Assembly (NCBI GenBank): GCA_022820675.1
Contig: JAJEFC010000073.1
Span: 10,330 to 42,329 of the forward strand
Reading direction: 5' to 3'
Source of the DNA: Vicinamibacteria bacterium
GTDB taxonomy: Bacteria > Acidobacteriota > Vicinamibacteria > Vicinamibacterales > UBA8438
Length of the DNA: 32,000 nucleotides
A program made the translations under genes and the position numbers. Numbering within the stretch: the stretch's first letter is position 1; each line of letters starts with the position of its first letter. The notes under the pieces were generated by a model that saw only the letters and a program-made list of their open reading frames with translations, searched no databases and was not told the DNA's origin. Shown piece after piece: positions 2,286-28,585 of the stretch.

Positions 2286-3293
2286 ATGAGCCGACGTTGT
2301 CTCGTTGCCGTACTCGTCGTGACGGCGGGGCTCGCGCTTTCGCCGCGACCGGCGGAGGCACAAGCGGAGGAGGCGGCGGAATCGCTCCGGACCGGTTGGG
2401 GCGAGCCCTCCCTGCAGGGCATCTGGGACTTCCGCTCCATCACGCCGCTGCAGCGGCCCGAGCGATACGCGGAGCGCGAGTTCCTCACCGAAGAGGAGGC
2501 GGCGGGCCTGGAGCAGGCCACCGTCGACCGCGAGCTCGAGCTGCTGCTTCGGCCCCCGCGGCGGACCCGGGCCGGGACCAGCGTCGACCGCGGCGAGGAC
2601 GGCGCGCTCGGCGCCTACAACGACTACTGGCTGGACCGGGGGACGACCACCCAGACCACGCGGCGCACGTCGCTCATCGTGGACCCGCCGAACGGGCGCA
2701 TGCCGCCCCTGACGGCCGAGGCCGAGCGGCGGCGGGCCGAGCGAGCCGCGTACCGGCGCGAGCACCCCGCCGACTCGTGGGAGGACCGCGGCCTGAACGA
2801 CCGGTGCATGTTCACCACCGGCCTGCCCATGGTCCCGAGCGCCTACAACAACAACGTGCACATCTTCCAGACCCCGGACCACGTGGCGATGGTCATCGAG
2901 ATGACGCACACCCTGCGCGTCGTGCCCCTCGACGGGCGCCCGCGGTCCGACCAGCCGATCCGGCAGTTCTCCGGGCAGTCGCGCGGCCACTGGGAGGGCG
3001 ACACCCTCGTCGTCGAGACCATGCACTTCAACCGCCTGACCAGCCTGCGGGGCTCGACCCCCGAGGCCCGGCTCGTCGATCGCTTCACGCGGGCCGCCCC
3101 CGACCTCATCGAGTACGAGTTCACCATCGAGGACCCGGCGACATGGACGCGTCCGTGGACGGCGCGGGTCGAGCTGAAGAGGACCGACGAGCCCCTCTAC
3201 GAGTACGCCTGCCACGAGGGCAACTACTCGATGGAGGGCATCCTGGCCGGCGCGCGGGCGGAGGAGCGGGCGGCGGCGGCGGGATTGCGCTAG
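2286..3293 (+). CDS. Secreted conserved hypothetical protein (signal peptide, C-terminal YEYACHEGNY motif)
   Basis: There is a strong RBS (GAGGAGG) 5 nt before the ATG. The signal peptide is LVAVLVVTAGLALSPRPAEAQA. The composition is non-repetitive and protein-like, and the ORF ends in TAG. I do not recognise the family by eye. Confidence 0.7.
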   Translation: MSRRCLVAVLVVTAGLALSPRPAEAQAEEAAESLRTGWGEPSLQGIWDFRSITPLQRPERYAEREFLTEEEAAGLEQATVDRELELLLRPPRRTRAGTSVDRGEDGALGAYNDYWLDRGTTTQTTRRTSLIVDPPNGRMPPLTAEAERRRAERAAYRREHPADSWEDRGLNDRCMFTTGLPMVPSAYNNNVHIFQTPDHVAMVIEMTHTLRVVPLDGRPRSDQPIRQFSGQSRGHWEGDTLVVETMHFNRLTSLRGSTPEARLVDRFTRAAPDLIEYEFTIEDPATWTRPWTARVELKRTDEPLYEYACHEGNYSMEGILAGARAEERAAAAGLR

Positions 3294-3745: not shown

Positions 3746-4930
3746 ATGCAGGGTCGTGCCCGCTGGATGATGATGACGAATCCGGTCCCCTCGACGAGGC
3801 GGCATCACCACGCCGTGATCGCCGTGGTGCTCGCATACCTGTGCGCACCGCCAGCCCTCGCCCAGTCGGCGGCCCCGGCGGCGGTGGCGCCCGCGCCGCT
3901 GCACTACGCCGAGGTGGTCGAGGAGGCGCGTGCGCTGGTGCGGACGGACATCGCCGAGCGCGGCTATCCCGGCATCGCGATCGCGGTGGCGGTCGACGGC
4001 GAGACGGTGTGGTCGGAGGGCTTCGGCTACGCCGACCTCGAGCACCGGGTCCCGATGTCGCCGGCGGTGAAGTTCCGCGTCGGCAGCATCTCCAAGTCGC
4101 TGACGGCGGCGGCGGTGGCGAGCCTGGTCGAGGACGGCCGCCTCGACCTCGACGTGCCGGTCCAGACGTACGTCCCGTCGTTCCCCGAGAAGGCGCACCC
4201 GGTCACAACGCGGCAGCTCGGCGGCCACCTGGGCGGGATTCGCCACTACCGGGGGAACGAGAACTTCATCCGCGACCCCTACGCGACGGTGGTCGACGGA
4301 CTGTCCATCTTCGCCGACGACCCGCTGCTGCACGAGCCGGGCACCGCGTTCTCGTACACGAGCCACGGCTTCAACCTGCTCAGCGCGGCGGTCGAGGGAG
4401 CGGCCGGACAGCCGTTCCTCGATTACATGCGCGACGCCGTCTTCCGTCCCCTCGGAATGCGCGACACCGTCGCCGACTTCGTGACCCCGATCATCCGCGG
4501 ACGGACCCGCTACTACGTGCGGGACGACGAAGGGCGGGTGGTGAACGCGCCGTTCGTCAACAACAGCTACAAGTGGGCCGGCGGCGGCTTCCTGTCGACG
4601 ACGGAGGACGTGCTGCGCTTCGCCAACGCCCATCTCGACGACGGGTTCCTGTCGAAGTCGTCGCGGGAGCTGCTCTTCACCGAACAGAAGACTCGCGACG
4701 GCGAGGGCGTGGGCTACGGCCTCGGGTGGTTCATCCGGACCCGCGACGACGGGCAGCGCCTGCTGTCCCACTCCGGCGGATCGGTCGGCGGCACGTCGCT
4801 GATGGTCATGGAGCCCGACACGCGGGTCGTCGTGGTGGGACTCATCAACCTGACCGGCGCGAACAACAGCGTCGTGCGCGAGGTGCTCGACCGGTTCATC
4901 GAGGCGGCGGCCGCCGCGACGGAGCATTGA
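3746..4930 (+). CDS. Serine hydrolase, class C beta-lactamase/penicillin-binding-protein-related family, secreted
   Basis: AAGGAG lies 7 nt before ATG 3746, an internal start of track ORF 3587-4930. A signal peptide is present. The family motifs are S-x-x-K (SISKSL), a YxN-like FSYTSHGFN and HSGGSVGG. Confidence 0.85.
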   Translation: MQGRARWMMMTNPVPSTRRHHHAVIAVVLAYLCAPPALAQSAAPAAVAPAPLHYAEVVEEARALVRTDIAERGYPGIAIAVAVDGETVWSEGFGYADLEHRVPMSPAVKFRVGSISKSLTAAAVASLVEDGRLDLDVPVQTYVPSFPEKAHPVTTRQLGGHLGGIRHYRGNENFIRDPYATVVDGLSIFADDPLLHEPGTAFSYTSHGFNLLSAAVEGAAGQPFLDYMRDAVFRPLGMRDTVADFVTPIIRGRTRYYVRDDEGRVVNAPFVNNSYKWAGGGFLSTTEDVLRFANAHLDDGFLSKSSRELLFTEQKTRDGEGVGYGLGWFIRTRDDGQRLLSHSGGSVGGTSLMVMEPDTRVVVVGLINLTGANNSVVREVLDRFIEAAAAATEH

Positions 4931-4961
4931 GCCGCCGCCGGACGGCCGCCGGCCCGTCGCC

Positions 4962-5240
4962 TCAGGACGACGGGAGCCGGAAGTTGACGGTCACCGTCAG
5001 CAGGACGGAAACGGGCACCCCGTCTGCCGGCGCGGGCTCGTACCGCCAGTGCTCGACCGCGGCGACCGCCGTCTCGTCCGGTAGCGGCACTGAACGCGAT
5101 ATCTCGACGTCGCTCACCTCGTCCGTCGGGCCGAGAGTGACATCCATGATGACGACACCCTGAGCTCGGGCTGCCCGGGCCTCGGGGGGATAGACCGGAT
5201 CGACACCGCGGACCGTGGTAGATTGGCACGTCAGACGCAT
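4962..5240 (-). CDS. TonB C-terminal domain only (92 aa), probably a truncated tonB remnant
   Basis: DPVYPPEARAARAQGVVIMDVTL...AAVEHWRYEPAPADGVPVSVLLTVTVNFRL matches the TonB_C consensus. There is no N-terminal TM or Pro-rich region and no further upstream start in the ORF. Its ATG lies 18 nt from the divergent start at 5258. Confidence 0.6.
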   Translation of the reverse strand: MRLTCQSTTVRGVDPVYPPEARAARAQGVVIMDVTLGPTDEVSDVEISRSVPLPDETAVAAVEHWRYEPAPADGVPVSVLLTVTVNFRLPSS

Positions 5241-5257
5241 GGTGACGGAGTGAAGCG

Positions 5258-6550
5258 ATGAGCAGCTCGTTGTCGAGAGTCCTTGCCTGGACCGTCGTGC
5301 TGTCGGCGTTCGTGGCGGCGAGTCCGCTCCAGGCGGCCGCGAACGAAGGCGGAACGGCGCCCGAGCACCCCACGTTCACCCGCGACGTGCTGCCCATCCT
5401 GCAGCGGTCCTGCCAGACGTGCCACCGGCCCGACATGTTCACGCCGATGTCGCTGCTGACCTACGAGGAGGTGCGGCCGTGGGCGCGGGCGATCAGGCAG
5501 CGGGTCGAGGAGCGGGTCATGCCGCCGTGGTTCGCGGACCGGACGGTGGGCCGGTACCGCGACGACCCGTCGCTGAGCGAGGCGCAGATCGCCACCATCG
5601 CCCGCTGGGTCGACCAGGGCGCCCCCCGCGGGAACCCCGCCGACGCGCCGCCGCCGGTCGAGTGGCCGGCCGTCGACACGTGGTACCACGGCGAGGAGCC
5701 GGACCTGGTCGTCACCAGCCCGCCGGTCGTGGTGCCCCCCAACTCGACCGAGACCTATCCCGAGCCGGAGATGTCGACCGGGCTCACCGAGGACCGCTAC
5801 ATCAAGTGGATCCAGGTCATGCCGGGCGAGTCGCGCGTCGTCCACCACGTGCTCGTCTACGCGGTGCGGGGCGGAGAGGACGGGGCGGCCGACGACGGCG
5901 CGCCGAGCGGGGTGCGCGAGCTGCTGGCCAACCGCGCGCGCGGCGACTTCGTCGGCGACCACTTCGAGGACGGCTACGCGCGGCTGCTGCGCAAGGACGA
6001 CCGCATCCGGCTTCAGCTCCACTACCTGCCCGACGACGAGCGGAGCTTCACCGACCAGACGAGCGTGGGCATCAAGTTCTACCCCGCGGGCTACGAGCCG
6101 GAGTACGTGGTGAGGACGAGGGCGGTGTCCAACCGCGCCGACCTGATCATTCCCCCGGGCGCGCCGAACGTGCGCAGCGACGCCTACTTCACCCTGCCCG
6201 AGGCGACCCGCATCATCAGCTTCCAGCCGCACATGCACTACCGGGGCAAGGCCATGACCCTGGAGGCGATACGGCCCGGCAGCGCGACCCCCGAGCTGCT
6301 GAGCGACGTCGACCGGTTCGCGTGGGACTGGCAGCCGACCTACGTGTACGAGACGCCGCTCACCCTGCCGGCGGGCACCGTCATGCACGTCACCGCGTAC
6401 CACGACAACTCGGCCGCCAACCGGGTCAACCCCGATCCGGACGCGGCGGTGGGCTGGGGCCAGCGGACCATCGACGAGATGAACATCGGCTGGCTCGACT
6501 ACTTCCACATCTCGGAGGAGGAGTACGCCGAGCTGCAGGCGGAGGAGTAG
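5258..6550 (+). CDS. Secreted haem-c (CxxCH, PSCyt1-like) domain fused to a PHM/DBH-like copper monooxygenase fold (cassette copy A)
   Basis: GGAG lies 7 nt upstream of the ATG and a signal peptide is present. The motifs are FTRDVLPILQRSCQTCH, then HH (196/197), H255, HxH (325/327 in QPHMHYRG) and M408 (IDEM). It is a paralogue of 26085-27530. Confidence 0.8.
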   Translation: MSSSLSRVLAWTVVLSAFVAASPLQAAANEGGTAPEHPTFTRDVLPILQRSCQTCHRPDMFTPMSLLTYEEVRPWARAIRQRVEERVMPPWFADRTVGRYRDDPSLSEAQIATIARWVDQGAPRGNPADAPPPVEWPAVDTWYHGEEPDLVVTSPPVVVPPNSTETYPEPEMSTGLTEDRYIKWIQVMPGESRVVHHVLVYAVRGGEDGAADDGAPSGVRELLANRARGDFVGDHFEDGYARLLRKDDRIRLQLHYLPDDERSFTDQTSVGIKFYPAGYEPEYVVRTRAVSNRADLIIPPGAPNVRSDAYFTLPEATRIISFQPHMHYRGKAMTLEAIRPGSATPELLSDVDRFAWDWQPTYVYETPLTLPAGTVMHVTAYHDNSAANRVNPDPDAAVGWGQRTIDEMNIGWLDYFHISEEEYAELQAEE

Positions 6551-6554
6551 CCGC

Positions 6555-7043
6555 ATGCGCCGGGCCGCCGTCGTTCTCGCGCTGGCGGGCGCCGCCGTCG
6601 TTCTCGCGCTGGCGGGCGCCGCCGCGTCCGCCGGGGCCCAGCCCCGGCACCCCGTCTACCTGATCTACGACGGCTTCATCGTGAACGCCGACGGCTCGCG
6701 GACGCTGGCGTTCGGCTACCACAACCTGAACCACGTCGACGTGACCGTCGACGGCGAAGACAACGCGTTCCTCGCCGGCGCGGCCGACCGCAGCCAGCCC
6801 ACCGTGTTCCGGCCGGGGCGGCACCGGTTCGCCTGCGTCATGGTCGTGCCGGACGGTCTCGACGCCCGGTTGCAGTGGCGCGTGCGCTTCGCCGGTCACA
6901 CGTCCACGACGACCCCCCGCATGCTGGACCCTCTCTACGCACTGGAAGAGGCGAGCGCGCGGCGGGCGGTCGAGGGCATCGTGGTCGACGGGTCGCCCCC
7001 GGGAACCTGCCTGGAGCGGGTGGCTTCGGGCGAACGGCCATAG
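6555..7043 (+). CDS. Secreted partner protein of cassette A (unknown family, beta-rich), short form
   Basis: It starts 4 nt after the upstream stop, and the GGAGGAG RBS lies inside the upstream gene's end. A signal peptide is present. The mature N-terminal ~110 aa are homologous to 27668-28585 (PVYLIYDGF..DGSRTLAFGY.. versus VVPAYEGWE..DGSFNLVFGT..; QPTVFRPGRHRF versus QPTWFLPRRNRF). Confidence 0.7.
   Translation: MRRAAVVLALAGAAVVLALAGAAASAGAQPRHPVYLIYDGFIVNADGSRTLAFGYHNLNHVDVTVDGEDNAFLAGAADRSQPTVFRPGRHRFACVMVVPDGLDARLQWRVRFAGHTSTTTPRMLDPLYALEEASARRAVEGIVVDGSPPGTCLERVASGERP
6564..6617. repeat. Perfect 27-bp tandem duplication (2 copies) inside the signal peptide of 6555-7043
   Basis: gccgccgtcgttctcgcgctggcgggc occurs at 6564-6590 and again at 6591-6617, giving AAVVLALAG twice in frame. 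Confidence 0.95.
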
Positions 7044-7441
7044 GCGAACGGCCGCACGGAAGCCGACCACGACCGGGCCAACGCCGAGAGGGTAAGCGCA
7101 ATCCGGCCTCCGAACGTCTACCATGCAGCAGGTTTGCCGCCGCGGACTCACGAACGGCTACGATCCTCGCGCCAGCAGCCTCGGCGGCGGCGACCAGCGG
7201 GTCGCGTTCGACGCCCGACCCGACGCCGGCCTCCGCTACTGTCGCGAGGACTCGGGGTTCCGTGTCTTCGCGCCGCCGCCGAGGCGAGAGGGCGGTGAAC
7301 GCGCAGACGCCGCGGATGTCATAATCCACCTTCGTTCGTGAGCTGGTCGAGGAAGCAGTACGTCCACACTGGAGGAGCTTCGATGCGGAACCCCCGATTC
7401 ATGATTGCCCGCTCGACGTCGACGGATCGACGCCGGTCGAC

Positions 7442-9853
7442 ATGATCGAGGGAAGCCCGAGCTCGCTGGACGTGCGTCCGGGCGGCGAGACGGCGATCCT
7501 GGCCGGGTGGTCGGCGCGCCTCGCGTGCGCCCTTGTGTCGTGCGCCCTGGTCCTGGCGGGAACGGCGGCGGCGGCCCAGCAGCAGGCCCTCGCCCCGCAG
7601 ACCGGCGCCATCGACGGCCCCCCCGCGCCGGTGCCGCCGGCCACCATCAACCGCGACGCGGCCGGCGGGGCGACGGTGCGCGCCGTCCGCCTCGATCAGC
7701 CGCTGCTGCTCGACGGCGTGCTCGACGAACTGGCCTACGAGACGACCGAGCCCTTCGGCGGCTTCATCCAGCAGGCCCCCGACGAGGGGGCGCCGGCCAC
7801 GGAGGCGACCGAGAACTGGATCTTCTTCGACGACGAGTCCGTCTACGTGGGGGCCCGCGTGTACGAGTCGGTCCCGGAGTCGGCGTGGGTCGCCAACGAG
7901 ATGCAGCGCGACTCGTTCCAGCTCATCAACAACGACGGCTACATCGTCGTCTTCGACACGTTCTACGACCGCCGGAACGGCTTCTCGTTCCGGGTCAACC
8001 CCATCGGGGGGTTCAGCGACCAGCAGATCACCGACGAGGGCAACCCCAACCCCGACTGGAACCCCGTGTGGGACGTGCGCACCGGCCGCTTCGACGGCGG
8101 CTGGACGGTCGAGATGGAGGTGCCCTTCCAGTCGCTCCGCTTCCGGCCGGGGGCGAACCAGGTGTGGGGCATCCAGATCGGCCGCGACATCCGGTCGAAC
8201 TACGAGGAGGCCTACCTCACGGCGGTGCCCATCTCGGCCGGCCCGGGGCAGTTCCGCCTGTCGGTGGCCGGCACCCTCGTGGGCCTCGAGGTGCCCGCGG
8301 ACAGCCGCACGTTCGAGGTCAAGCCCTACGCCATCGGCTCCGTCAACACCGACCGGACCGTCGCGCCGCCGATCTCGAACGCCGGTGACGGGAACGGCGG
8401 CGTCGACCTCAAGTACGGGCTGACCGAGAACCTGACCGCCGACTTCACGCTGAACACCGACTTCGCGCAGGTCGAGGTGGACGAGCAGCAGATCAACCTG
8501 ACCCGGTTCAGCCTGTTCTTCCCCGAGAAGCGCGAGTTCTTCCTGGAGAGCCAGGGCATCTTCGACTTCGCGCGGGTGGCCGGCTTCGGCGGCTTCGGCG
8601 GGTCGGCGCGGGGGAACCTCAACGCGGCGCCGGGGGTCTTCCCGCCCGGCGACGCGCCGACCCTCTTCTTCAGCCGGCGCATCGGCCTCGACGCGACGGG
8701 GCGGACGGTGCCCATCCTCGGCGGCGGACGGCTGACCGGCAAGGTGGGCGACTTCAGCGTGGGGGCCATCAACATCCAGACCGACGACGTGTCCACCGGC
8801 GCCGCGTCGCCCGCCGGCGCCGCCGGCACGAACTTCAGCGTGCTTCGCATCAAACGCGACATCCTGCGCCGGAGCCGCGTCGGCGCGATGTTCACCAACC
8901 GGTCGATCTCGTTGAACGGCGACGGCGCGAACCAGGCCTACGGCCTCGACGGGTCGTTCTCGTTCTACGACAACGTCAACCTCTACGGCTACTACGCCCA
9001 GACGAGGACGCCGGGCCTCGAAGGCGACGACGAGAGCTATCAGGCCGCGTTCTCGTACGAGGGCGACCTCTACGGCCTCCTCGTCGACCACCTGCAGGTC
9101 GGCGGGAACTTCAACCCCGAGATCGGCTTCATGCGCCGCCACGACTTCCGGCGCAGCTACGTCCACGCGCAGTTCAGCCCGCGGCCCGAGGGCATCGAGG
9201 CGGTGCGCCAGTTCACGTGGGCCGGCAGCCTCGACTACATCACCAACGGGGCCGGGCAAATCGAGACCCGCATCCTGTCGGGGCGCTTCCAGACCTCGTT
9301 CGAGAACAGCGACAGCCTGAGCGCGGACATCCAGCAGGACTACGAGCTGCTGACCGACCCCTTCGAGCTCGCCGGCGCCATGACCCTGCCCGTCGGCGGC
9401 TACGAGTTCACCGACTTCCAGGTGTCCTACCGCATGGGGCCGCAGCGCCGGGTGGCGGGCAACCTGTGGGTCCAGCACGGCGAGTTCTTCGACGGCGACA
9501 TCACCGCCGTCGGCTACTCGCGGGGCCGCATCGAGGTGACGCGGCAGTTCGCGGTCGAGCCGAGCGTCTCGCTGAACCGCATCACCCTGCCGCAGGGCGC
9601 GTTCACGGCCCGGGTGACGACGACGCGGCTCACCTACACCTTCACGCCGCGCATGTTCGCGAGCGCGCTGCTGCAGCACAACTCGGTCGACAACGTGCTG
9701 AGCACCAACGTGCGCCTCCGCTGGGAGTATCAGCCGGGCAGCGAGCTGTTCGTGGTGTACAACGACCAGCGCGACACCTGGCTGAGCCGCGGCTTCCCGA
9801 TGCTCGAAAACCGCGCCTTCGTGGTGAAGGTCACCCGCCAGTTCCGCTTCTGA
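7442..9853 (+). CDS. DUF5916-family outer-membrane protein with an N-terminal CBM9-like domain
   Basis: A signal peptide is present. The motif set is LDG.LDE, ...FIQQAPDEGAPATE...WIFFDDESVYVGARV, ...WNPVWDVRTGRFDGGWTVEMEVPFQSLRF and ...WGIQIGRDI. A long beta-rich C-terminal part ends in ...TRQFRF, the C-terminal aromatic typical of OMP barrels. Confidence 0.85.
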   Translation: MIEGSPSSLDVRPGGETAILAGWSARLACALVSCALVLAGTAAAAQQQALAPQTGAIDGPPAPVPPATINRDAAGGATVRAVRLDQPLLLDGVLDELAYETTEPFGGFIQQAPDEGAPATEATENWIFFDDESVYVGARVYESVPESAWVANEMQRDSFQLINNDGYIVVFDTFYDRRNGFSFRVNPIGGFSDQQITDEGNPNPDWNPVWDVRTGRFDGGWTVEMEVPFQSLRFRPGANQVWGIQIGRDIRSNYEEAYLTAVPISAGPGQFRLSVAGTLVGLEVPADSRTFEVKPYAIGSVNTDRTVAPPISNAGDGNGGVDLKYGLTENLTADFTLNTDFAQVEVDEQQINLTRFSLFFPEKREFFLESQGIFDFARVAGFGGFGGSARGNLNAAPGVFPPGDAPTLFFSRRIGLDATGRTVPILGGGRLTGKVGDFSVGAINIQTDDVSTGAASPAGAAGTNFSVLRIKRDILRRSRVGAMFTNRSISLNGDGANQAYGLDGSFSFYDNVNLYGYYAQTRTPGLEGDDESYQAAFSYEGDLYGLLVDHLQVGGNFNPEIGFMRRHDFRRSYVHAQFSPRPEGIEAVRQFTWAGSLDYITNGAGQIETRILSGRFQTSFENSDSLSADIQQDYELLTDPFELAGAMTLPVGGYEFTDFQVSYRMGPQRRVAGNLWVQHGEFFDGDITAVGYSRGRIEVTRQFAVEPSVSLNRITLPQGAFTARVTTTRLTYTFTPRMFASALLQHNSVDNVLSTNVRLRWEYQPGSELFVVYNDQRDTWLSRGFPMLENRAFVVKVTRQFRF

Positions 9854-18936: not shown

Positions 18937-19347
18937 CTGGACGCGGGTCCACCTGCGCAGGTTGGGGCGGATCACCTCGCGCCGGGAAATACGCGTGTCG
19001 TTGATCGAGCAGGGATCGCTGGATCCCCCTCGGTCCCTGCCCGGCCCGCGTGGCTTGTCTTGTCCGGCCGCGCGAGTGCTCTACAGTACCCGTGCGCCCT
19101 CCAAGGTCCCCGGCACGTTGACGTCAACGCACCTCTGCGCCGCCCCGGCGTGGGCAATTCCTGCACCCGCCGTTCTCCGCCACCAGCTCGTTCGCATGCA
19201 ACTCGGGCCGTTCCGCGTTGGCCCCGTTCTTGCTCCGTGAAGCACCTCGTCAACGGCCCGCCGGCCCGGGTTGCCCCCGCAACCCGCCGCGCGCCGCACG
19301 CCCCGCACGACGCAGGAGGTGGACTCCGGACGCCGCCAGGAGCGCGA

Positions 19348-20421
19348 ATGCACGACCCCGCCTACAAGCTCTTGTTCTCGCGCCCGCGCATGGTCCGCGA
19401 CCTGCTCGACGGCTTCGCCGCCCGAAGCTGGAGCGGCCTCCTAGACTTCGAGTCGCTGGCCCCCCTCCCCGCCAGCTTCGTCGGCCGAGAGCTCCAGCAG
19501 CGCCACGGCGACCTCATCTGGCGCGTCCGCTTCCGCGGCGACCGATGGCTCTACCTGGTCCTGCTCCTCGAGTTCCAGTCCACCGTCGACCCGGCGATGG
19601 CGGTCCGCATCCTGGAGTACACCGCCCTGCTCTACCGGCGGCTGGTCGACCACGACGTGCTCCGAGAACACGGGGCCCTGACGCCGGTGCTGCCGGTCGT
19701 CCTCTACAACGGCCGACGGCGGTGGACGGCGCCGGTCGACGTGACGAGCCTGCTGGCGGCTGAGAGCGACACTCTGGCGCGGTACCAGCCGTCGCAGCGA
19801 TACTATGTCCTGGACGTGGCGCGCGCGGCGGACGCCGACCTGCCGGCGGGCAACCTGGTGTCGGCGCTCATCGGTCTGGAGAAGACGCGCGACGCGACGG
19901 GCCTGCGCGGGGCGCTGAAGGCGCTGTTCGACCTTCTGCGGCAACAGAAGGACGGCGCGTTGACGCGGGCGTTCCTGACGTGGCTGCGCCACGGGTTGCG
20001 GCATGCGGGCCGGCTGCCGGCAGACGGGGACCATCCGTTGGCGCAGTTGCGGGAGACGCAGACGATGCTGGAAGAGACCGTGCGGGAATGGACGCAGGAA
20101 TGGCTCGAGCAGGGCCGTGCCCAAGGCATGGAGAAGGGCATCGAGCAGGGCCGCGCCCAAGGCATCGAGCAGGGTCGCGCCCAAGGCATCGAGCAGGGCC
20201 GTGCCCAAGGCATCGAGCAGGGCCGCAGCGAAGAGCGGGCGCTGCTCTGCCGCCAAGCAGCCCGGAAGTTCGATACCGGGACCGCCGAGGGACTGGCCGC
20301 CGCCCTGGCCGGCGTCACCGACCCGGACCGCCTTGCGCGCGTCGGCGACTGGATCATCGAGTGCGCGACGGCGTCGGACCTGCTGGACCTAGTCCACGGC
20401 GAAAACGGGTCGGTAGGCTGA
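19348..20421 (+). CDS. Rpn-family recombination-promoting nuclease/putative transposase (PD-(D/E)XK N-domain, DUF4351-like C-domain), full-length copy A
   Basis: AGGAG lies 5 nt before ATG 19348. The motifs are DLIWRVRF...LYLVLLLEFQS (the D...E.Q nuclease motif), ...LPVVLYNG and a GIEQGRAQ repeat block. The C-terminus is LLCRQAARKFD...LARVGDWIIECATASDLL. Confidence 0.85.
   Translation: MHDPAYKLLFSRPRMVRDLLDGFAARSWSGLLDFESLAPLPASFVGRELQQRHGDLIWRVRFRGDRWLYLVLLLEFQSTVDPAMAVRILEYTALLYRRLVDHDVLREHGALTPVLPVVLYNGRRRWTAPVDVTSLLAAESDTLARYQPSQRYYVLDVARAADADLPAGNLVSALIGLEKTRDATGLRGALKALFDLLRQQKDGALTRAFLTWLRHGLRHAGRLPADGDHPLAQLRETQTMLEETVREWTQEWLEQGRAQGMEKGIEQGRAQGIEQGRAQGIEQGRAQGIEQGRSEERALLCRQAARKFDTGTAEGLAAALAGVTDPDRLARVGDWIIECATASDLLDLVHGENGSVG
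20104..20232. repeat. In-frame 24-bp tandem repeat (ggcatcgagcagggccgcgcccaa; GIEQGRAQ) within Rpn copy A
   Basis: Four near-perfect 24-bp units lie at 20137-20232, with degenerate units upstream. The paralogue has a shorter array at about 23391-23483. Confidence 0.85.
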
Positions 20422-21451: not shown

Positions 21452-22498
21452 TCAGAACGTGGCAATGGGGTTGATCGGCGACCCGGTGCCGCGCGTGGGC
21501 AGCGGCGCCGCCGTCAGCAGGAACTCGTAGCGGTTCAGCGAGGCGGCCACCTCGCCCACGGCCTCGAGGTCCAGATTGTCGAACAGCGGCATTCCCAGGT
21601 AGATGAGCGCGAACCGGTGGAGCGGCCGGGGACCGAGGTCGTCCGCCGCCGTGACGGCCGGGTCCGCGTCGGCCGGCGCCATGTCCTGGGCCGCCTCGCC
21701 GCCCAGTATCGCGATGTCGCGCTCGCTGAGCCACGGGATGACCGACGCGTGCAGTCCGGCCGCCGCGCTGGCCACGTCCCAGGGGCCGACCTCGGCACGC
21801 CGGGCCCAGCGGCCGGTGCGGATGACCACCACGTCGCCGGCGGAGACGGTCACGCCCGTCGCCGCCTCCCAGGCCTCGATGTCCTCGACGTGGATCGGCG
21901 TGCCCGGCTCCAGGTACGGCACGTTGCGGAACCGCGCCATGTCGATCAGCACGCCCCGCGTGACGATGCCCGACTTGGCGTTGTGCACGGTGTTCCTGGC
22001 GTGGCCGCCGCGGGCCGCGACCTCGGCGGGGTCGGGCCGGTAGTCGTTGTAGGTCACGCCGTCGCCGATGAAGTTGTGGTTCAGGAAGTCGAGGTGGGTG
22101 TGGATGAACCCGTGGTACGCGATCCGGATCTCGTCGGCGGTGATCCCGAGCGGGGTGACCTGATACGGCCGCGGGCCGTCGATCGTCGCCTCGGTCTCGG
22201 CGTCGCGCGCGAGCGAGACGGAGATGCCCTCCCGCACGAGGGTGGCCGCCTGCCTGCGCTTCTCCGGCGTGATGAGGTTCAGGGTGCCCCTCTCGTCGTC
22301 GGCGCCCCACCGGCCCCAGTTCGACAGCTCCTGCTTCCACCGCTCGACATCCGCCTGCGTGACCCGCTGGCCGCCGGCTGATGCCGAGCCCGGCTGGAAG
22401 CCCAGGGAGCGGACGGTCTGCCCGAGCAACGGCACCGCGACGACGCCCGCCAGCGCGACGACGGCAGCCAGACTCGATCGTCTCTTGGTCGTTCCCAT
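21452..22498 (-). CDS. Cyclase-family protein (kynurenine formamidase-like fold), secreted
   Basis: GGGAGGG lies 4 nt before ATG 22498 and a signal peptide is present. The motifs are NWGRWGADDERGTLN, the His cluster HGFIHTHLD and VVIRTGRW. Confidence 0.85.
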   Translation of the reverse strand: MGTTKRRSSLAAVVALAGVVAVPLLGQTVRSLGFQPGSASAGGQRVTQADVERWKQELSNWGRWGADDERGTLNLITPEKRRQAATLVREGISVSLARDAETEATIDGPRPYQVTPLGITADEIRIAYHGFIHTHLDFLNHNFIGDGVTYNDYRPDPAEVAARGGHARNTVHNAKSGIVTRGVLIDMARFRNVPYLEPGTPIHVEDIEAWEAATGVTVSAGDVVVIRTGRWARRAEVGPWDVASAAAGLHASVIPWLSERDIAILGGEAAQDMAPADADPAVTAADDLGPRPLHRFALIYLGMPLFDNLDLEAVGEVAASLNRYEFLLTAAPLPTRGTGSPINPIATF

Positions 22499-22670
22499 TG
22501 ATCCCTCCCTGGTGCCGCTCCGTGGTCATCGCGGCTCCGCGACCCGGAGCCCGAGACGTTCCTCCGCCGATCGGATCGGGCCATCGAAAGGTTCCCGGTC
22601 CCGCGTGCCTCACTCCGCGAGGCACGGCCTGATGATAGTCCGTCCGCCGGTTCGCTCAGCGCGTCGTCAG

Positions 22671-22750
22671 CATCGACCAGCGCAGTGCGGGCGCGAACGC
22701 ACAGCGGGCCAGGACCGCCAGACGTGCTCGTTCCTCGCCATCCACGCCAG
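22671..22750. repeat. About 80-bp unit (copy 1) bordering the truncated Rpn copy; second copy at 23746-23825
   Basis: c(a/g)tcga(c/g)cagcgc(a/g)gtgcgggcgcgaac...caggaccgcc(a/g)gac(g/a)tgctcg(t/c)tcctcgccatccacgccag. On the minus strand the unit carries an RBS plus the first ~20 codons of a gene (MSGGPDLLQVRARTALLDA). In this copy the ATG is ACG. Confidence 0.8.
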
Positions 22751-22751
22751 C

Positions 22752-23672
22752 ATGCCCGCCAGCTTCGTCGGCCGAGAACTGCAGCAGCGCCACGGCGACC
22801 TCATCTGGCGCGTCCGCTTCCGCGACGACCGCTGGCTCTACCTGGTCCTGCTCCTCGAGTTCCAGTCCACCGTCGACCCGGCGATGGCGGTGCGCATCCT
22901 GGAGTACACCGCGCTGCTCTACCGGCGGCTGGTCGACCACGACGTGCTCCGAGAACACGGGGCCCTGCCGCCGGTGCTGCCGGTCGTCCTCTACAACGGC
23001 CGGCGGCGGTGGACGGCGCCGGTCGAGGTGACCAACCTGCTGGCGGTGGGGCGCGACGTGCTGGCGCCGTACCAGCCGTCGCAGCGATACCATGTTCTGG
23101 ACGTGGCGCGCGCGGCGGACGCCGACCTGCCGGCGGGCAACTTGGTCTCTGCGCTCATCGGCCTGGAGAAAACGCGCGACGCGGCGGGCCTGCGCGGTGC
23201 GCTGAAGGCGCTGTTCGACCTTCTGCGGCAACAGAAGGACGGCGCGTTGACGCGGGCGTTCATGACGTGGCTGCGCCACGGGCTGCGGCATGCGGGCCGG
23301 CTGCCGGCAGACGGGGAGGACCCGTTGGCGCAGTTGCAGGAGACGCAGACGATGCTGGAAGAGACCGTGCGGGAATGGACGCGGGAATGGCTCGAGCAGG
23401 GCCGCGCCCAAGGCATCGAGCAGGGCCGCGCCCAAGGCATCGAGCAGGGGCGCGTCCAGGGCATCGAGCAGGCCCGCCACGAAGAGCGGGCGCTGCTCTG
23501 CCGTCTGGCGGCCCGGAAGTTCGATGACGGGGCCGCCGAGAGACTGGCCGCCGCCCTGGCCGGCGTCACCGACCCGGACCGCCTTGCGCGCGTCGGGGAC
23601 TGGATCATCGAGTGCGCGACGGCGTCGGACCTGCTGGCCCGCGTCCGCGGCGACAACGGGCCGGGTGGCTGA
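22752..23672 (+). pseudogene. Rpn-family nuclease/putative transposase, 5'-truncated copy B (lacks about 45 N-terminal codons)
   Basis: It is near-identical to copy A from PASFVGRELQQRHGDLIWRVRF onward. Homology starts abruptly at 22755. There is no SD before the fortuitous ATG 22752. The D...EFQ motif is retained. Confidence 0.75.
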
Positions 23673-23847: not shown

Positions 23848-24231
23848 TCAGCAGACGACCAACTGCGGAATCCACCGGAAGTGGCGGTCGCCGGTGCAGA
23901 GCACCAGGTCGTGGTGGACCGCGAGGGCGGCGATCCAGAGGTCGTTCGTCGGTATCGGGCGGCCGTCGCGGCGAAGCTGCCGGTGCAACCGTGCGTAGTG
24001 GTGGGTCGTCTGTTCGTCGGGCGCGAGCACCGACACGCGGGGGCTGGCGAGGAACCGTTGCAGGTTGGCGGCGTTCGCCGATTCCCGGTTGCCGGCCGCG
24101 AATCCGGCCCGCAACTCGGCCAGCACGATGAGCGGCAGGACGATGGCCGGCACGGTTCGAACGAGCTCGACCCGTTCGGCGACTCCGCGCATGAAGTCGC
24201 TGTAGGCGTTCGTGTCGAGGGCGACGGTCAT
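23848..24231 (-). CDS. vapC: PIN-domain toxin (VapC family), second TA locus
   Basis: This is an internal ATG of track ORF 23848-24567. The sequence is MTVALDTNAYSDFMRG...LIVLAELRAGF...TNDLWIAALAVHHDLVLCTGDRHF. It overlaps the upstream antitoxin by 4 nt. Confidence 0.85.
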   Translation of the reverse strand: MTVALDTNAYSDFMRGVAERVELVRTVPAIVLPLIVLAELRAGFAAGNRESANAANLQRFLASPRVSVLAPDEQTTHHYARLHRQLRRDGRPIPTNDLWIAALAVHHDLVLCTGDRHFRWIPQLVVC

Positions 24232-24467
24232 GTCCACGACTCGTCGTCGATGCGCTCGAACTCGGCGACGGCGCTGTCGAAGTCCGGGTCTTCCTCCCAG
24301 GTGCCGGCCAGATGGTCGAGGTCGGTGTGCCTGGCGGTGGCGTCGAGGGCCAGCCCGCGGGCCAGCGCGTCGATGACGACCGCGTTGAGGCTCTTCGATT
24401 CCCGCTTGGCCCGCTGCCGAAGGGCGCGGTCGATCGCGTCCGGAACGGCTCGAATGGTGTACTGCAT
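24228..24467 (-). CDS. vapB: Ribbon-helix-helix antitoxin (VapB/FitA-like)
   Basis: MQYTIRAVPDAIDRALRQRAKRESKSLNAVVIDALARGL has the typical RHH N-terminus. The start is ATG 24465-24467, and the CDS is 79 aa. Confidence 0.8.
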   Translation of the reverse strand: MQYTIRAVPDAIDRALRQRAKRESKSLNAVVIDALARGLALDATARHTDLDHLAGTWEEDPDFDSAVAEFERIDDESWT

Positions 24468-24497
24468 GACGTGTATGCAGGCATGGTAACACCCCGG

Positions 24498-24671
24498 CGC
24501 AGGCATGGGAGCAGGCACACGTGCCCCGGCGCGGACCAGACGGGTGCCCCGTTGCGGTTCGCCGCACAGAACGCGCTCGTGCTCGAGCGCGGCGTGCTGT
24601 CGATCACGCCCGACGGCCGCTACGACATGGCGATCCCGTCGATGGCCCGGTGGCTGGCAGGCGAACGGTGA
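24498..24671 (+). pseudogene. 3' remnant of a paralogue of the downstream P-loop NTPase gene
   Basis: It reads ...CPGADQTGAPLRFAAQNALVLERGVLSITPDGRYDMAIPSMARWLAGER*. This is nearly identical to the C-terminus of 24668-25879 (FAAALVERGVLSITPDGRYDVAIPSMARWLAAGTR*). Its TGA overlaps the GTG start of the intact gene (GTGA). Confidence 0.6.
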
Positions 24672-25879
24672 GCACCGACGCCGGGACGCGGTGGCATCGC
24701 GCGTATACTCGCCCCGTGGGCTTCGATTCCGAGTTGGCGCGAGCGCTTCTGGAGGAAGTCGACCGCGACACGGCCGCGTTCTTCGCCGGCCGTCGCGCGG
24801 AGATCCAGCGGTTCGACGAGGCGCTTCGCACGGTGGAGCGCCGCTTCGAGGGCAACGAGCGCGCCCTGTTCCTCGTCTACCAGGGCGCGCCGGGCTGCGG
24901 CAAGACCTCGCTGGTCTCCCATCTGCGGAAAGCCCGCCCGGAGGAGATCGGGCTGCTCGTCAACGTCCAGCCTTCGGATTTGGCGAGCGTCTCCGCGCTG
25001 ACCGAGCAGGTGCGCCGCACGGCGGAGGATGCCGGTCCGGCGGGCAGCCGGGTGGCGGCCCGTTTCGCGCAGGCGCTGGCCTCCTACCTGCGCATGGGTG
25101 GTTCCGGCGCCGAACTGCGCAGCCTCATGGCGGACCGCACGGCCAGGCGGGCCAAGGTCGTGCTGCATCTGGACGAAGCCCAGGTCATCGACGAGTCGGC
25201 CAAGGCGGGCCTCTTGATGCTGCACACGCGGGGCCTCGGCGCGCCGTGCGTCTTCCTGTTCACGGGCCTGAGCCACACGGCGCAGCGGATCGACACCGTC
25301 AGGGGCGGGTCGCAGGCCGGGGAGAACACCGTCTTCAACATGGGCGCGATGGCCGCCGAGGAGTGCGCCGAGTCGACCGCGATGATGCTCGCCGCGCTCG
25401 GCGCGGGTGGCGGCGACGCGGAGAAGGACCGGGCGGCGGGGCTGGCCGCGGAGCTGTCGTACGGCTGGCCCCAGCATCTGCACATCGCCCAGACGGCCCT
25501 GTGCCGCGAGCTGCTGCGGACGGACGGGACGCTGCGGGGCATCGACTCGGACCGGGTGCGGACCGAATCGGACCGGCGCCGCCACGATTACTACGCCAAG
25601 AGGCTGTCCGGCTCCGTCCTCGGCCTGCGGCCGTCGTTCACGGCCGCCGTCGTCGCCCGGGTGACGGCGCTGCGGCCGCACGACTGGCTCACGCTGGCCG
25701 ACCTGTGCGAGGACGAGCTGCAACAGTCGGGTCTGGCCGCCAACCCGAACTTCGACGCCACCTCGGGCGAGTTCGCCGCCGCGCTGGTCGAGCGCGGCGT
25801 GCTGTCGATCACGCCCGACGGCCGCTACGACGTGGCGATTCCGTCGATGGCCCGCTGGCTGGCGGCGGGTACGCGTTGA
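24668..25879 (+). CDS. P-loop NTPase (AAA_16/Arch_ATPase-like, STAND-like) with a C-terminal winged-helix-like tail
   Basis: The start is GTG 24668, internal to the track ORF. The motifs are FAGRRAEIQRFDEAL, Walker A GAPGCGKTS and Walker B VVLHLDEAQ. Confidence 0.75.
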   Translation: MSTDAGTRWHRAYTRPVGFDSELARALLEEVDRDTAAFFAGRRAEIQRFDEALRTVERRFEGNERALFLVYQGAPGCGKTSLVSHLRKARPEEIGLLVNVQPSDLASVSALTEQVRRTAEDAGPAGSRVAARFAQALASYLRMGGSGAELRSLMADRTARRAKVVLHLDEAQVIDESAKAGLLMLHTRGLGAPCVFLFTGLSHTAQRIDTVRGGSQAGENTVFNMGAMAAEECAESTAMMLAALGAGGGDAEKDRAAGLAAELSYGWPQHLHIAQTALCRELLRTDGTLRGIDSDRVRTESDRRRHDYYAKRLSGSVLGLRPSFTAAVVARVTALRPHDWLTLADLCEDELQQSGLAANPNFDATSGEFAAALVERGVLSITPDGRYDVAIPSMARWLAAGTR

Positions 25880-26084: not shown

Positions 26085-27530
26085 ATGACGACGACGCGAG
26101 ACCGGCGGCGGACGTTTCCCTGGCAGATCGTGCTCACCACGGCGGTCGCGGCCCTCGCCGCGATGCCCGCCCCGGCCGCGGCGCAGGCCGCGGCCACCGA
26201 CGAGGTCACCTTCACCCGCGACATCGCCCCGATCCTCCAGCGGAGCTGTCAGAAGTGCCATCAGCCCAACTCGCTGGCGCCGATGTCGCTCATCGACTAC
26301 GAGGAGGTGCGGCCCTGGGCTCGCGCCATCAAGCTGCGCACGGGGCTGCGCGACAAGCCGGGGGTGATGCCCCCGTGGTACATCGAGAAGGACATCGGCA
26401 TCCAGCGGTTCAAGGACGACCCGTCGCTGAGCGACGAGGAGGTCGCCCTGATCGCGCGGTGGGCCGACAACGGCGCGCCGCGGGGGAATCCCGCCGACCT
26501 GCCCCCGCCGGTGCCGTTCATCGACGTCGACCAGTGGGAGATCGGGCAGCCCGACCTGATCGTGTCGTCGCCGAGCTTCGAGGTGGCGGGTGACGCGCCC
26601 GACTGGTGGGGCTCGATCGGCGAGGTGCCGACGGGGCTGACCGAAGACCGCTACGTCGCCGCGATGGAGTACAAGGAGGTCACCGAGTCGAGCGTGGGCG
26701 AGACCCGCAACACGGTGGGCGGCCTCTTCGTGGTACACCACGCCACCCTCGGCGTCACCGACCCCGACCCCGACCCGAACGAGGACGATCCGCTGGCCGC
26801 GCAGCGCCGCTGGCCGACCCACGAGGTGGGGCGCAACGCCGACGTCTTCGACCCCGAGGCGGGCAAGATCATGAAGGCGGGGTCGAATCTGCAGTTCAAC
26901 TCGATGCACCTGCACGCGAACGGGGCGGACACGCGGGCCCACCTCGACGTCGGGTTCAAGTTCCATCCCCGCGGCTACGAGCCGACCCGGAAGTGGGTGC
27001 GGATGTCGTTCGGCAACGGCGTCGACCTCGACATCGAGGCGATGGACCCCGACCAGCAGGCGGAGGCGTACTTCACCCTGCCGGAGAACACGCTGATCAC
27101 CATCTTCGAGCCCCACATGCACGCGCCCGGCGTGCGCATGTGCCTCGACGCCATCTGGGGGCACAACGTCCAGACCCTGAACTGCGCCGGCTACGACCAC
27201 AGTTGGGTGCGGGTCTACAACTACGCCGACGACGCGGCGCCCCTGCTGCCGAAGGGCACCATCCTCAGGATGACCGGCTACTTCAACAACTCGCCGTCGA
27301 ACCCCAACGTGCCCGATCCGCGCAACTGGTCGGGCGGCGGACACCGCTCGGTCGACCAGATGTTCATCAACCTGATGCGCGGGGTCTACCTGACCGACGA
27401 GGAGTTCGCGGCCGAGATGGCGAAGCGGCGCGAGGCCCTCGAGCTGGCCGACGGCGAGGTGGTCCTCGGCTGTCCGCTCTGCGGAACGCTGAAGCTGGCG
27501 CCGGCCGAGAACGCCGGAGGCGGACAGTGA
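26085..27530 (+). CDS. Secreted haem-c (CxxCH) domain fused to a PHM/DBH-like copper monooxygenase fold (cassette copy B)
   Basis: GAGGAGG lies 5 nt before the ATG. The motifs are FTRDIAPILQRSCQKCH, then HH 218/219, H277 (SMHLH), HxH 344/346 (EPHMHAPG) and M426 (VDQM). An extra C-terminal CPLC is present. Confidence 0.8.
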   Translation: MTTTRDRRRTFPWQIVLTTAVAALAAMPAPAAAQAAATDEVTFTRDIAPILQRSCQKCHQPNSLAPMSLIDYEEVRPWARAIKLRTGLRDKPGVMPPWYIEKDIGIQRFKDDPSLSDEEVALIARWADNGAPRGNPADLPPPVPFIDVDQWEIGQPDLIVSSPSFEVAGDAPDWWGSIGEVPTGLTEDRYVAAMEYKEVTESSVGETRNTVGGLFVVHHATLGVTDPDPDPNEDDPLAAQRRWPTHEVGRNADVFDPEAGKIMKAGSNLQFNSMHLHANGADTRAHLDVGFKFHPRGYEPTRKWVRMSFGNGVDLDIEAMDPDQQAEAYFTLPENTLITIFEPHMHAPGVRMCLDAIWGHNVQTLNCAGYDHSWVRVYNYADDAAPLLPKGTILRMTGYFNNSPSNPNVPDPRNWSGGGHRSVDQMFINLMRGVYLTDEEFAAEMAKRREALELADGEVVLGCPLCGTLKLAPAENAGGGQ

Positions 27531-27542
27531 GAGCCGTAGCCG

Positions 27543-27680
27543 GGCGCGGCGGGACACTCGAAGACCGCCGGATGCGCGGTGGTCCGCTTCGCAAGACGCT
27601 GAGAGGCCGGGCCGGCGGCGGGGCTCTCGAAGACCGCCCGATACGCGGCGGTCCGCTCCGCGGGACGGTGAGGACCCCGG
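27543..27680. repeat. Two tandem ~69-nt units, each with a 7-bp-stem hairpin, between cassette-B genes
   Basis: The core ctcgaagaccgcc(g/c)gat(g/a)cgcgg(t/c)ggtccgct(t/c)cgc occurs at 27557-27592 and 27626-27661. The stem is GACCGCC/GGCGGTC in unit 2 and GACCGCC/GGTGGTC (a G-U wobble) in unit 1. Confidence 0.75.
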
Positions 27681-28585
27681 CCGGCCGCGGCAGGGCCCTT
27701 TCGGCGACGGCCGTACTCCTCGCCGGGCTGCTCGTCGTCCTCGCCGTCCAGGACGCGGACGCGCAGGGCTCGCGCCGCGCCTACGACTTCGGCCAGGAGG
27801 TGGTGCCGGCCTACGAGGGCTGGGAGCAGAACCCGGACGGCTCGTTCAACCTGGTGTTCGGGACGATGAACCGGAACTGGGAGGAAGAGCTGCACATCCC
27901 CGTCGGCCCCGACAACAACATCGAGCCCGGGGGACCCGACCAGGGGCAGCCGACGTGGTTCCTGCCGCGGCGGAACCGGTTCCTCTTCCGCATCCGGGTC
28001 CCGGCCGACTTCGGCGCCAAGGAGCTGGTGTGGACGCTCACCAGCCACGGCGAGACGAAGCGCGCCTACGGCACCCTGAAGCCCGACTACTACATGGACG
28101 ACAACGTCCGCATGGCCAACAACGGGGCCGGCGTCTCCGGCGAGCTGTTCAAGAACGTGGCCCCGACGCTCGAGATCCGCGGCGAGTCGACCCGCACCGT
28201 GAAGGCCAACACGCCGGTCACGCTGACCGCGGTCGCGCACGACGAGGACGAGCTGCCGAGGCGGCGGGGCATGCGCCCCGTGGACCCGGGCCGGCCCACG
28301 AGCCTGACGCCAATCGCCGCAACCGGCCTCCGGCTCTCCTGGTTCGTCTACCGGGGGGCCGTGCCGGTGACCTTCGATCCGGTGCAGACCAAGGTGTGGG
28401 AGGACACGCGGGCCAACTCGAACTCGCCGTGGGGCGCGGGCTGGGAGACGCCCGACCCGCCCCCGGACAACGAGTGGGTCGTGCAGGCGACCTTCACCGA
28501 GCCTGGCACCTACGTGCTCCGGTGCATCGCCCACGACGGCGGGCTCGCGACCTACGAGGACGTCACTTTCGTGGTGACGGAGTGA
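27668..28585 (+). CDS. Secreted partner protein of cassette B, long form with an extra C-terminal Ig/PKD-like domain
   Basis: This is the C-terminal part of the artefactual track ORF 26606-28585. I prefer GTG 27668 because it gives a normal signal peptide (RALSATAVLLAGLLVVLAVQDADAQG). The alternative is ATG 27572. The N-domain is homologous to 6555-7043. The C-terminus ...VTLTAVAHDEDE...GTYVLRCIAHDGGLATYEDVTFVVTE is Ig-like. Confidence 0.7.
   Translation: MRTPAGRGRALSATAVLLAGLLVVLAVQDADAQGSRRAYDFGQEVVPAYEGWEQNPDGSFNLVFGTMNRNWEEELHIPVGPDNNIEPGGPDQGQPTWFLPRRNRFLFRIRVPADFGAKELVWTLTSHGETKRAYGTLKPDYYMDDNVRMANNGAGVSGELFKNVAPTLEIRGESTRTVKANTPVTLTAVAHDEDELPRRRGMRPVDPGRPTSLTPIAATGLRLSWFVYRGAVPVTFDPVQTKVWEDTRANSNSPWGAGWETPDPPPDNEWVVQATFTEPGTYVLRCIAHDGGLATYEDVTFVVTE

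Follow-up and report, generated by a model that had tools for sequence, protein, structure and literature searches.

Peptidylglycine α-hydroxylating monooxygenase (PHM, the catalytic core of PAM; PDB 1PHM, 1OPM, 1SDW and 3MLL) and dopamine β-monooxygenase (DBH; PDB 4ZEL) are textbook eukaryotic enzymes that are hard to produce, and both the electron route to their CuH site and the ~11 Å crossing from CuH to CuM are debated. Single electrons are relayed by a haem to a copper monooxygenase in two known settings, namely from cytochrome b561 through ascorbate to PHM and DBH, and from the cytochrome domain of fungal cellobiose or pyrroloquinoline quinone (PQQ) pyranose dehydrogenase to lytic polysaccharide monooxygenases. 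Here we describe a two-gene cassette, enzA-partA (cassette A), located within a 32,000-nucleotide stretch of DNA from Vicinamibacteria bacterium (contig JAJEFC010000073.1, positions 10,330 to 42,329; hereafter the window). The first gene is predicted to encode a secreted protein with a haem-c domain fused to a PHM/DBH-like dicopper core, and the second a secreted partner. On balance, the cassette probably specifies a periplasmic copper monooxygenase of the PHM/DBH type with two subunits, connected to bacterial electron transport by a covalent haem c of its own. The catalytic core itself is already known; what is new is the proposed entry of electrons through a covalent haem c, together with an obligatory partner and a periplasmic location in bacteria. 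The fungal systems differ in that the folds and cofactors are unrelated (a haem b cytochrome and a histidine-brace single copper) and the electrons pass between proteins, whereas the haem c would here be part of the same chain as the copper core.

The AlphaFold2 model of EnzA, built on an alignment of 33 sequences, has a predicted local distance difference test score (pLDDT) of 82 and a predicted template modelling score (pTM) of 0.80, and comprises a helical N-terminal domain followed by ~20 β-strands. When the model is searched against the PDB with Foldseek, the top 31 consecutive matches are all PHM or human DBH (E 2e-13 to 2e-9), with PHM chains aligning over ~285 columns at target-normalised template modelling (TM) scores of 0.52–0.65, and the first match beyond them is to unrelated jelly-roll proteins (E 3e-5, TM <0.25). 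The C-terminal region of EnzA is therefore modelled as the two-lobe β-sandwich of PHM and DBH, as the initial annotation had proposed from the order of the putative copper ligands, and an unrelated fold was not seen. Sequence identity between EnzA and PHM (best match E 2e-13) is only 16–18%, and the likeness extends to the catalytic core of DBH, tyramine β-monooxygenase (TBM) and MOXD1 (E 1e-12, TMq 0.50). In addition, the Pfam model Cu2_monoox_C (PF03712) matches residues 298–423 of EnzA with 23.3 bits against a curated cut-off of 23 (E 4.9e-5) and is matched by 31/33 homologues at E ≤ 0.1; the Pfam scan returned no PF03712 match for the paralogue EnzB, encoded elsewhere in the window. Homology to PHM is visible only by fold and by this C-lobe model.

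The residues proposed as copper ligands were placed on PHM by aligning the family profile with the rat PHM core using hhalign. In the PHM sequence used, the numbering agrees with the published positions of all six ligands. One colinear alignment of 242 columns pairs VVHH of EnzA with TVHH (H107/H108), LQLH with LQVH (H172), PHMH with VHTH (H242/H244) and DEM with DEM (M314). H196, H197 and H255 would thereby correspond to the CuH ligands, and H325, H327 and M408 to the CuM ligands. The ligand order is the same in the two proteins and the gaps are similar, with a spacing of 58/70/81 in EnzA versus 64/70/70 in PHM.

These residues belong to a very large family. When 1.84 billion representatives of 50%-identity clusters are scanned exhaustively with HMMER, 15,319 clusters are recovered at E ≤ 1e-3, and 1,937 remain at E ≤ 1e-30; they are concentrated in soil Acidobacteriota, which are poorly cultured. 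In the 150 best representatives, which share 32–56% identity with EnzA and were counted where the sequence is ungapped, CxxCH (C52/C55/H56) is kept in 147/147 and M88-P-P in 148/148. The proposed CuH ligands are kept in 145/147 (H196), 146/147 (H197) and 147/147 (H255), and the proposed CuM ligands in 144/144 (H325 and H327) and 142/142 (M408). The initial annotation had argued that these residues are under selection, and this stands up well, because a conservation of 97–100% lies far beyond chance; it had also named the haem motif as a site that should persist in orthologues, which it does throughout. Across 63 multidomain relatives the mean column identity falls to 13%, yet 18 columns are invariant, including the two Cys and the His of the haem motif, M-P-P, HH, H, HxH and M. 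Together these counts are strong evidence that selection acts on what appear from the alignment to be a single haem site and a pair of copper sites of the PHM type. Database names for the family range from 'hypothetical protein', 'cytochrome c' and 'mono/diheme cytochrome c family protein' to 'alkyl hydroperoxide reductase', with 'copper type II ascorbate-dependent monooxygenase-like protein' occurring once, and NCBIfam holds no model for either the enzyme or the partner.

The N-terminal domain of EnzA has the features expected of a class-I c-type cytochrome, namely a signal peptide, a single CxxCH motif (C52-x-x-C55-H56, read as CQTCH), a downstream invariant M88-P-P-W that may provide the distal Met, and a small domain modelled with helices at residues 40–51, 69–84 and 108–119. 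H56 and, probably, M88 are the candidate axial ligands of the haem. The domain differs from other class-I cytochromes in being fused to an enzyme and not free-standing. Pfam matches to EnzA itself fall below threshold (Cytochrome_CBB3, PF13442, E 0.2; Haem_bd, PF14376, E 0.16), and Cytochrome_CBB3 is matched by 27/33 homologues at E ≤ 0.1, the best at 3e-6, and at 4e-9 by the relative P0241. The label 'PSCyt1-type' given to the motif at first has to be dropped: PF07635 matches neither copy in the window at E ≤ 1 and none of the 33 homologues at E ≤ 0.1, and is absent from the 25 most frequent families listed for the 63 relatives. The linker between the haem domain and the core is modelled with a pLDDT of 96–97, which, together with the overall pTM, suggests that the haem domain is docked against the core and not floppy.

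The second gene of the cassette is tied to the first across genomes. A PartA-type protein is encoded at 29 genome loci, all of them in Vicinamibacterales (Acidobacteriota), and an enzA orthologue lies directly upstream of the partner in 28 of them and 2.2 kb upstream in the 29th. Among 80 diverse metagenome loci (39–79% identity), 38 could be evaluated, having an enzyme gene with at least 1 kb on both sides, and in 36 of these tblastn places the partner gene within 700 nt of the enzyme gene, downstream in 23, upstream or fused in nine and divergent in four. Calling open reading frames by GC content at third codon positions (GC3) gave only 24/39 and missed many partner genes, so the tblastn count is used. 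In more distant loci the enzB and partB genes share a 4-nt overlap, and tandem duplication of the pair is frequent. The conserved adjacency foreseen for the two families is thus borne out, and single-polypeptide fusions go beyond it: signal peptide–partner–cytochrome c–PHM in L068, L072, L076, L087 and P0247, enzyme–partner in P0249 and P0250, and a split form in P0248 in which the enzyme sits between the two domains of the partner. Because of the adjacency counts and of fusions in at least three topologies, the enzyme and its partner very likely form a physical and functional complex. A clade with ~50–55% identity to EnzA (P0044, P0077, P0111, L042 and L043) is without a partner; the gene downstream of P0044, a Blastocatellia homologue, was considered as a candidate and rejected, as its product is of partner-like size and unrelated. 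Residue conservation and gene linkage make it very improbable that the conserved His and Met residues are structural or bind another metal, in a haem protein with a PNGase F/PHM-like scaffold that serves for binding and has no catalytic role, with the downstream gene a mere neighbour. The PHM/PNGase F fold does also occur without copper, but all six residues at the PHM ligand positions are 97–100% conserved against a mean column identity of 13%, and three fusion topologies with adjacency in 36/38 loci rule out a chance neighbour.

The usual partner is ~300 aa long and has a signal peptide followed by two β-sandwich domains, a ~130-aa N-domain that is also present in PartA and an Ig/PKD-like domain at the C terminus. 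PartA itself is truncated, having a signal peptide (~aa 1–28) and one ~130-aa β-sandwich domain, and is without the C-domain. A search with PartA alone returns close relatives only; a profile that includes PartB returns 4,826 proteins. No family in Pfam or NCBIfam matches the partner, apart from weak PKD matches in 4/34 members. The residues that are invariant in it comprise Tyr, Trp, Asn, Asp, Arg, Gly and Pro, and none is His, Cys or Met. The partner was therefore rejected as a copper chaperone, and a redox role is likewise unlikely. DBH carries an extra N-terminal β-sandwich (DOMON), which is reminiscent of the partner–enzyme fusions; neither a DOMON nor a DBH dimerisation domain was detected, and the Foldseek search with the partner model did not retrieve DBH.

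If the enzyme operates as its fold implies, both proteins would be exported by Sec, and the Ccm or Ccs machinery would attach haem to C52 and C55. Each β-sandwich lobe would then bind one copper, CuH at H196/H197/H255 and CuM at H325/H327/M408. A periplasmic donor would reduce the haem one electron at a time; a soluble c-type cytochrome and a PQQ dehydrogenase encoded nearby are candidates, as is the redoxin domain that some relatives carry as a fusion. Transfer from the haem to CuH would replace the ascorbate and cytochrome b561 of the eukaryotic enzymes, two electrons being consumed per turnover, and CuM would bind O2 and hydroxylate a C–H bond of a substrate that sits in the cleft between the lobes. 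The partner would be a non-catalytic β-sandwich subunit that binds the enzyme and most likely recognises or presents the substrate. PHM depends on ascorbate, has a PAL lyase fused to it within PAM and lacks a dedicated partner subunit; given the fused haem c and the periplasmic location, we predict that ascorbate dependence does not apply to EnzA, the haem c taking the place that ascorbate has in DBH also.

Several observations weigh against this reading of the cassette. The sequence evidence for the N-lobe is weak, as the corresponding Pfam model (PF01082) does not match EnzA and matches 1/33 homologues at E 0.084. Neither PHM nor DBH was retrieved when PDB sequences were searched with the family profile or with the PHM-like region by itself; the only hits were a cytochrome c of marginal score (4rlr, E 0.54) and matches expected by chance. 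The statistics of the hhalign comparison with PHM are poor (E 0.027, probability 1.8%), and we therefore let the fold search carry the homology claim and the alignment only the mapping of residues. For the partner, the model is poor in the N-domain (pLDDT 55–70, compared with 85–97 in the C-domain and 67 overall), and its Foldseek matches are generic tandem Ig folds with TM scores of 0.2–0.3. The peroxiredoxin-like domains that are fused to some relatives could indicate peroxide chemistry. No biochemically characterised member of the family was found in the literature searched, nor any study of bacterial members in the full-text literature, a search that leaves out most subscription journals. 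Finally, in the hhalign alignment R240, N316 and Y318 of PHM are replaced by Q323, I410 and W412, so that none of these three peptidylglycine-specific positions is kept in EnzA.

R240, Y318 and N316 reportedly anchor the carboxylate and backbone of the PHM substrate. With these anchors replaced, the chemistry may differ from that of PHM, EnzA is not filed as a peptidylglycine hydroxylase, and the substrate is probably not a glycine-extended peptide. The same replacements speak against a bacterial peptide-amidation pathway, in which the enzyme would hydroxylate the α-carbon of a C-terminal glycine or of N-acylglycines and a separate PAL-like lyase would release glyoxylate and leave the amide. 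Such a pathway, which we regard as quite unlikely, draws on NHL β-propellers with similarity to the PAL domain of rat PAM (match to 3fvz at E 2.9e-24, in one colinear stretch), which are encoded within a few genes of homologous cassettes, at six of the 80 metagenome loci (L048, L051, L061, L063, L096 and L119) and at L001–L003 and L036. The window is also rich in peptidases and amidases (a tricorn-like protease, an amidase and a β-lactamase-fold hydrolase). PAL-like genes are found, however, at only ~8% of loci and nowhere in the window. Compared with the sequence of the PAL core, the PAL-like proteins are 33–42% identical and have equivalents of His585, His690 and Arg706, but carry His in place of the catalytic Tyr654, and the third zinc histidine is not evident. 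Amidation is, moreover, not known in prokaryotes (PMC6739457).

Uncharacterised bacterial fusions of a redoxin (AhpC/TSA), cytochrome c and PHM-like core belong to the same family (32–40% identity across the cytochrome c and PHM-like parts), keep all ligands and differ from the window copies by the additional N-terminal thiol-redoxin domain and, sometimes, by EF-hand, TPR or CBM48-like tails. The redoxin domain is present in 33/149 of the top representatives (~22%), where EF-hands, TPRs and CBM48-like domains also occur as fusions. This fusion, the automatic name 'alkyl hydroperoxide reductase' and the lack of conservation of the PHM substrate-binding residues would all fit a protein that is no oxygenase, but handles periplasmic electron transfer, oxidase activity or peroxide, for example by passing electrons from thiols through the redoxin to O2 or H2O2. 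We consider this unlikely for the cassette, as its copies have no redoxin domain and the nearly universal, non-redox partner fits substrate handling better than pure electron transfer. To our knowledge, the His3 plus His2Met ligand set is also characteristic of substrate-hydroxylating PHM, DBH and TBM.

No neighbour other than the partner is universal across loci. The most frequent are PQQ-dependent dehydrogenases (L004, L036, L039, L053, L072, L074, L076, L086, L087, L100, L117 and L118), which lie near 9/80 metagenome loci and eight genome loci, and at L004, L036 and L039. PQQ dehydrogenases commonly reduce c-type cytochromes; the one at L004 is a quinohaemoprotein that has a Cytochrome_CBB3 domain of its own and is encoded by a gene that overlaps the enzyme gene at the latter's end. 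TonB-dependent receptors are found near 9/80 metagenome loci, and PF04199 cyclase-like hydrolases near 8/80, with one in the window itself (21452–22498).

These neighbours also bear on an oxidative carbohydrate-active system, in which the partner or CBM-like domains would target a glycan that the copper site oxidises, with electrons from a PQQ sugar dehydrogenase arriving through the haem, much as in the fungal relay from PQQ or cellobiose dehydrogenase via a cytochrome domain to lytic polysaccharide monooxygenases. AMPK1_CBM/CBM48-like domains are C-terminally fused in four relatives, the neighbouring dehydrogenases are of the glucose/alcohol type and are joined by the TonB-dependent receptors and, at three loci, a GH5-like protein, and a DUF5916 gene lies directly downstream in the window's lineage. 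The invariant Tyr, Trp, Asn, Asp and Arg of the partner are likewise those seen in sugar-binding β-sandwiches. Nevertheless, the partner matches no CBM or glycoside-hydrolase family, every one of the neighbour associations is a minority, with DUF5916 in only 1/84 of the more distant loci (L036–L119), and we know of no PHM-type enzyme that acts on polysaccharides; we hold such a carbohydrate role to be improbable. A broader proposal, which we put forward tentatively and would not yet favour, is that this family gives the PHM/DBH copper monooxygenases their first branch in prokaryotes, a very abundant and self-contained periplasmic module for C–H hydroxylation in soil bacteria that combines a dicopper core fused to haem c with an obligatory β-sandwich subunit, draws electrons from respiration or PQQ dehydrogenases instead of ascorbate, and acts on environmental substrates; together with a PQQ dehydrogenase encoded next to it, the module might run a redox-balanced loop in which the substrate is hydroxylated and then dehydrogenated.

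Should the PHM/DBH-type assignment hold, a soluble bacterial homologue with a spectroscopically visible donor would allow the intramolecular transfer from haem to CuH to CuM to be measured directly, and the copper chemistry of PHM and DBH would not be limited to ascorbate-containing compartments of eukaryotes. Because the family is very large and concentrated in soil Acidobacteriota, it probably represents an unrecognised oxidative step in soil carbon or nitrogen turnover, as well as a new source of biocatalysts for O2-dependent hydroxylation. The partner is an unannotated protein family of several thousand members that is now tied to a specific enzyme.

Features of cassettes A and B in the window (positions are those of the 32,000-nucleotide stretch; domain and ligand assignments are predictions)
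Feature	Position	Strand	Description
enzA	5258–6550	+	430 aa, ATG start; predicted secreted haem-c/PHM-like dicopper protein
Sec-type signal peptide of EnzA	5258–5341	+	~aa 1–28, MSSSLSRVLAWTVVLSAFVAASPLQAAA, cut before NE; cleavage site inferred
Cytochrome c-like domain, class-I	5369–5632	+	EnzA ~aa 38–125; CxxCH codons 5411–5425; candidate axial Met88 5519–5521
PHM-like N-lobe	5699–6127	+	EnzA ~aa 148–290; proposed CuH ligands H196/H197 (5843–5848) and H255 (6020–6022)
PHM-like C-lobe	6128–6511	+	EnzA ~aa 291–418; proposed CuM ligands H325/H327 (6230–6238) and M408 (6479–6481)
Gene junction	6541–6557	+	GGAGGAG (Shine-Dalgarno-like), enzA TAG, CCGC, partA ATG
partA	6555–7043	+	162 aa, ATG start; short-form secreted partner
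enzB	26085–27530	+	481-aa EnzA paralogue; all haem and copper ligands kept
partB	27668–28585	+	~305-aa long-form partner; N-domain common with PartA and C-terminal Ig/PKD-like domain

Both open reading frames of cassette A lie exactly where the initial annotation had placed them, and the residues it named in EnzA (CQTCH at 52–56, VVHH with H196/H197, H255, PHMH with H325/H327, and DEM with M408) are all as read. The window has a GC content of 71%, and by codon-position GC both genes show the pattern of real genes, with GC3 values of 0.97 (enzA) and 0.93 (partA) and low GC at second positions. The signal-peptide region of EnzA (residues 1–30) is modelled with pLDDT <50 and is variable in the family alignment. 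At the junction, the TAG stop of enzA (6548–6550) is followed by CCGC and the partA start, leaving a 4-nt gap, and GGAGGAG (6541–6547) lies 8–14 nt 5' of the partA ATG; gaps in many related loci are similar, from -8 to +18 nt. A scan of 4800–7500 for promoters and terminators found none. Within the partA signal peptide, a 27-nt perfect tandem duplication (6564–6617) adds AAVVLALAG and appears to be recent, since relatives in the partner alignment are without it.

The second cassette, enzB-partB, preserves the same arrangement at considerable divergence. EnzB is 39% identical to EnzA (E 7e-83) and retains every residue that had been claimed for the paralogue (C55/C58/H59, H218/H219, H277, H344/H346 and M426), and the secreted protein that follows it is indeed homologous to PartA (35% identity, E 1e-12), so that the order of enzyme then partner is kept in both paralogous cassettes despite these low identities. 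The 4-nt spacing noted for cassette A does not extend to this copy, where partB starts either 41 nt (ATG 27572) or 137 nt (GTG 27668) after enzB. The GTG is the more likely start because it fits the lengths of homologues. Between the enzB stop and this likely start lies a 69-nt tandem repeat of 81% identity (27546–27683), which has no other copies within the window, shows no RNA-structure signal on folding (z = 0.06), and is also present in the annotated N-terminus of the close relative P0390.

In at least nine related genomes (loci including L021, L023–L027, L030 and L033) the two cassettes stand in tandem in the order enzB-partB-enzA-partA; in the window they are 19 kb apart. Upstream of cassette B are two genes for YhgA-like transposases (19060–20421 and 22224–23672), a PIN-toxin/antitoxin-like pair (23848–24518, minus strand), recognised by reading of the translated open reading frames only, and an AAA ATPase gene (24521–25879). 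As the cassettes are contiguous in relatives and transposase genes precede copy B here, a rearrangement mediated by mobile elements is suggested. A third, more divergent enzyme–partner cassette (~45% identity) occurs at locus L039 (162–2389, minus strand), where it is broken into several frames, owing either to decay of the copy or to faulty assembly.

Cassette A is base-for-base identical to a public metagenome scaffold (ERZ23491428 scaffold_1640, locus L120), which also has the same gene order. Over 16.1 kb the window and this scaffold differ at only five bases (1071, 3080, 10735, 12789 and 15862), none of them within 5258–7043, and two of the five create TAG stops, at codon 348 of a GCV_T-family gene and codon 342 of an amidase gene. 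Upstream of cassette A, positions 2286–3293 (plus strand) encode a secreted protein of 335 aa that matches no Pfam family and bears the motif YEYACHEGNY in its C-terminal part. Its homologues flank 23/119 cassette loci, sometimes adjoining the enzyme or the partner (L032, L037, L069 and L079), and it may be a third component of the cassette. Closer to enzA, a 92-aa open reading frame on the minus strand (4962–5240) consists of a TonB C-terminal domain only (PF03544, E 8e-19), with 17 nt between it and the start of enzA; homologues of this fragment are found at varying positions in related loci.

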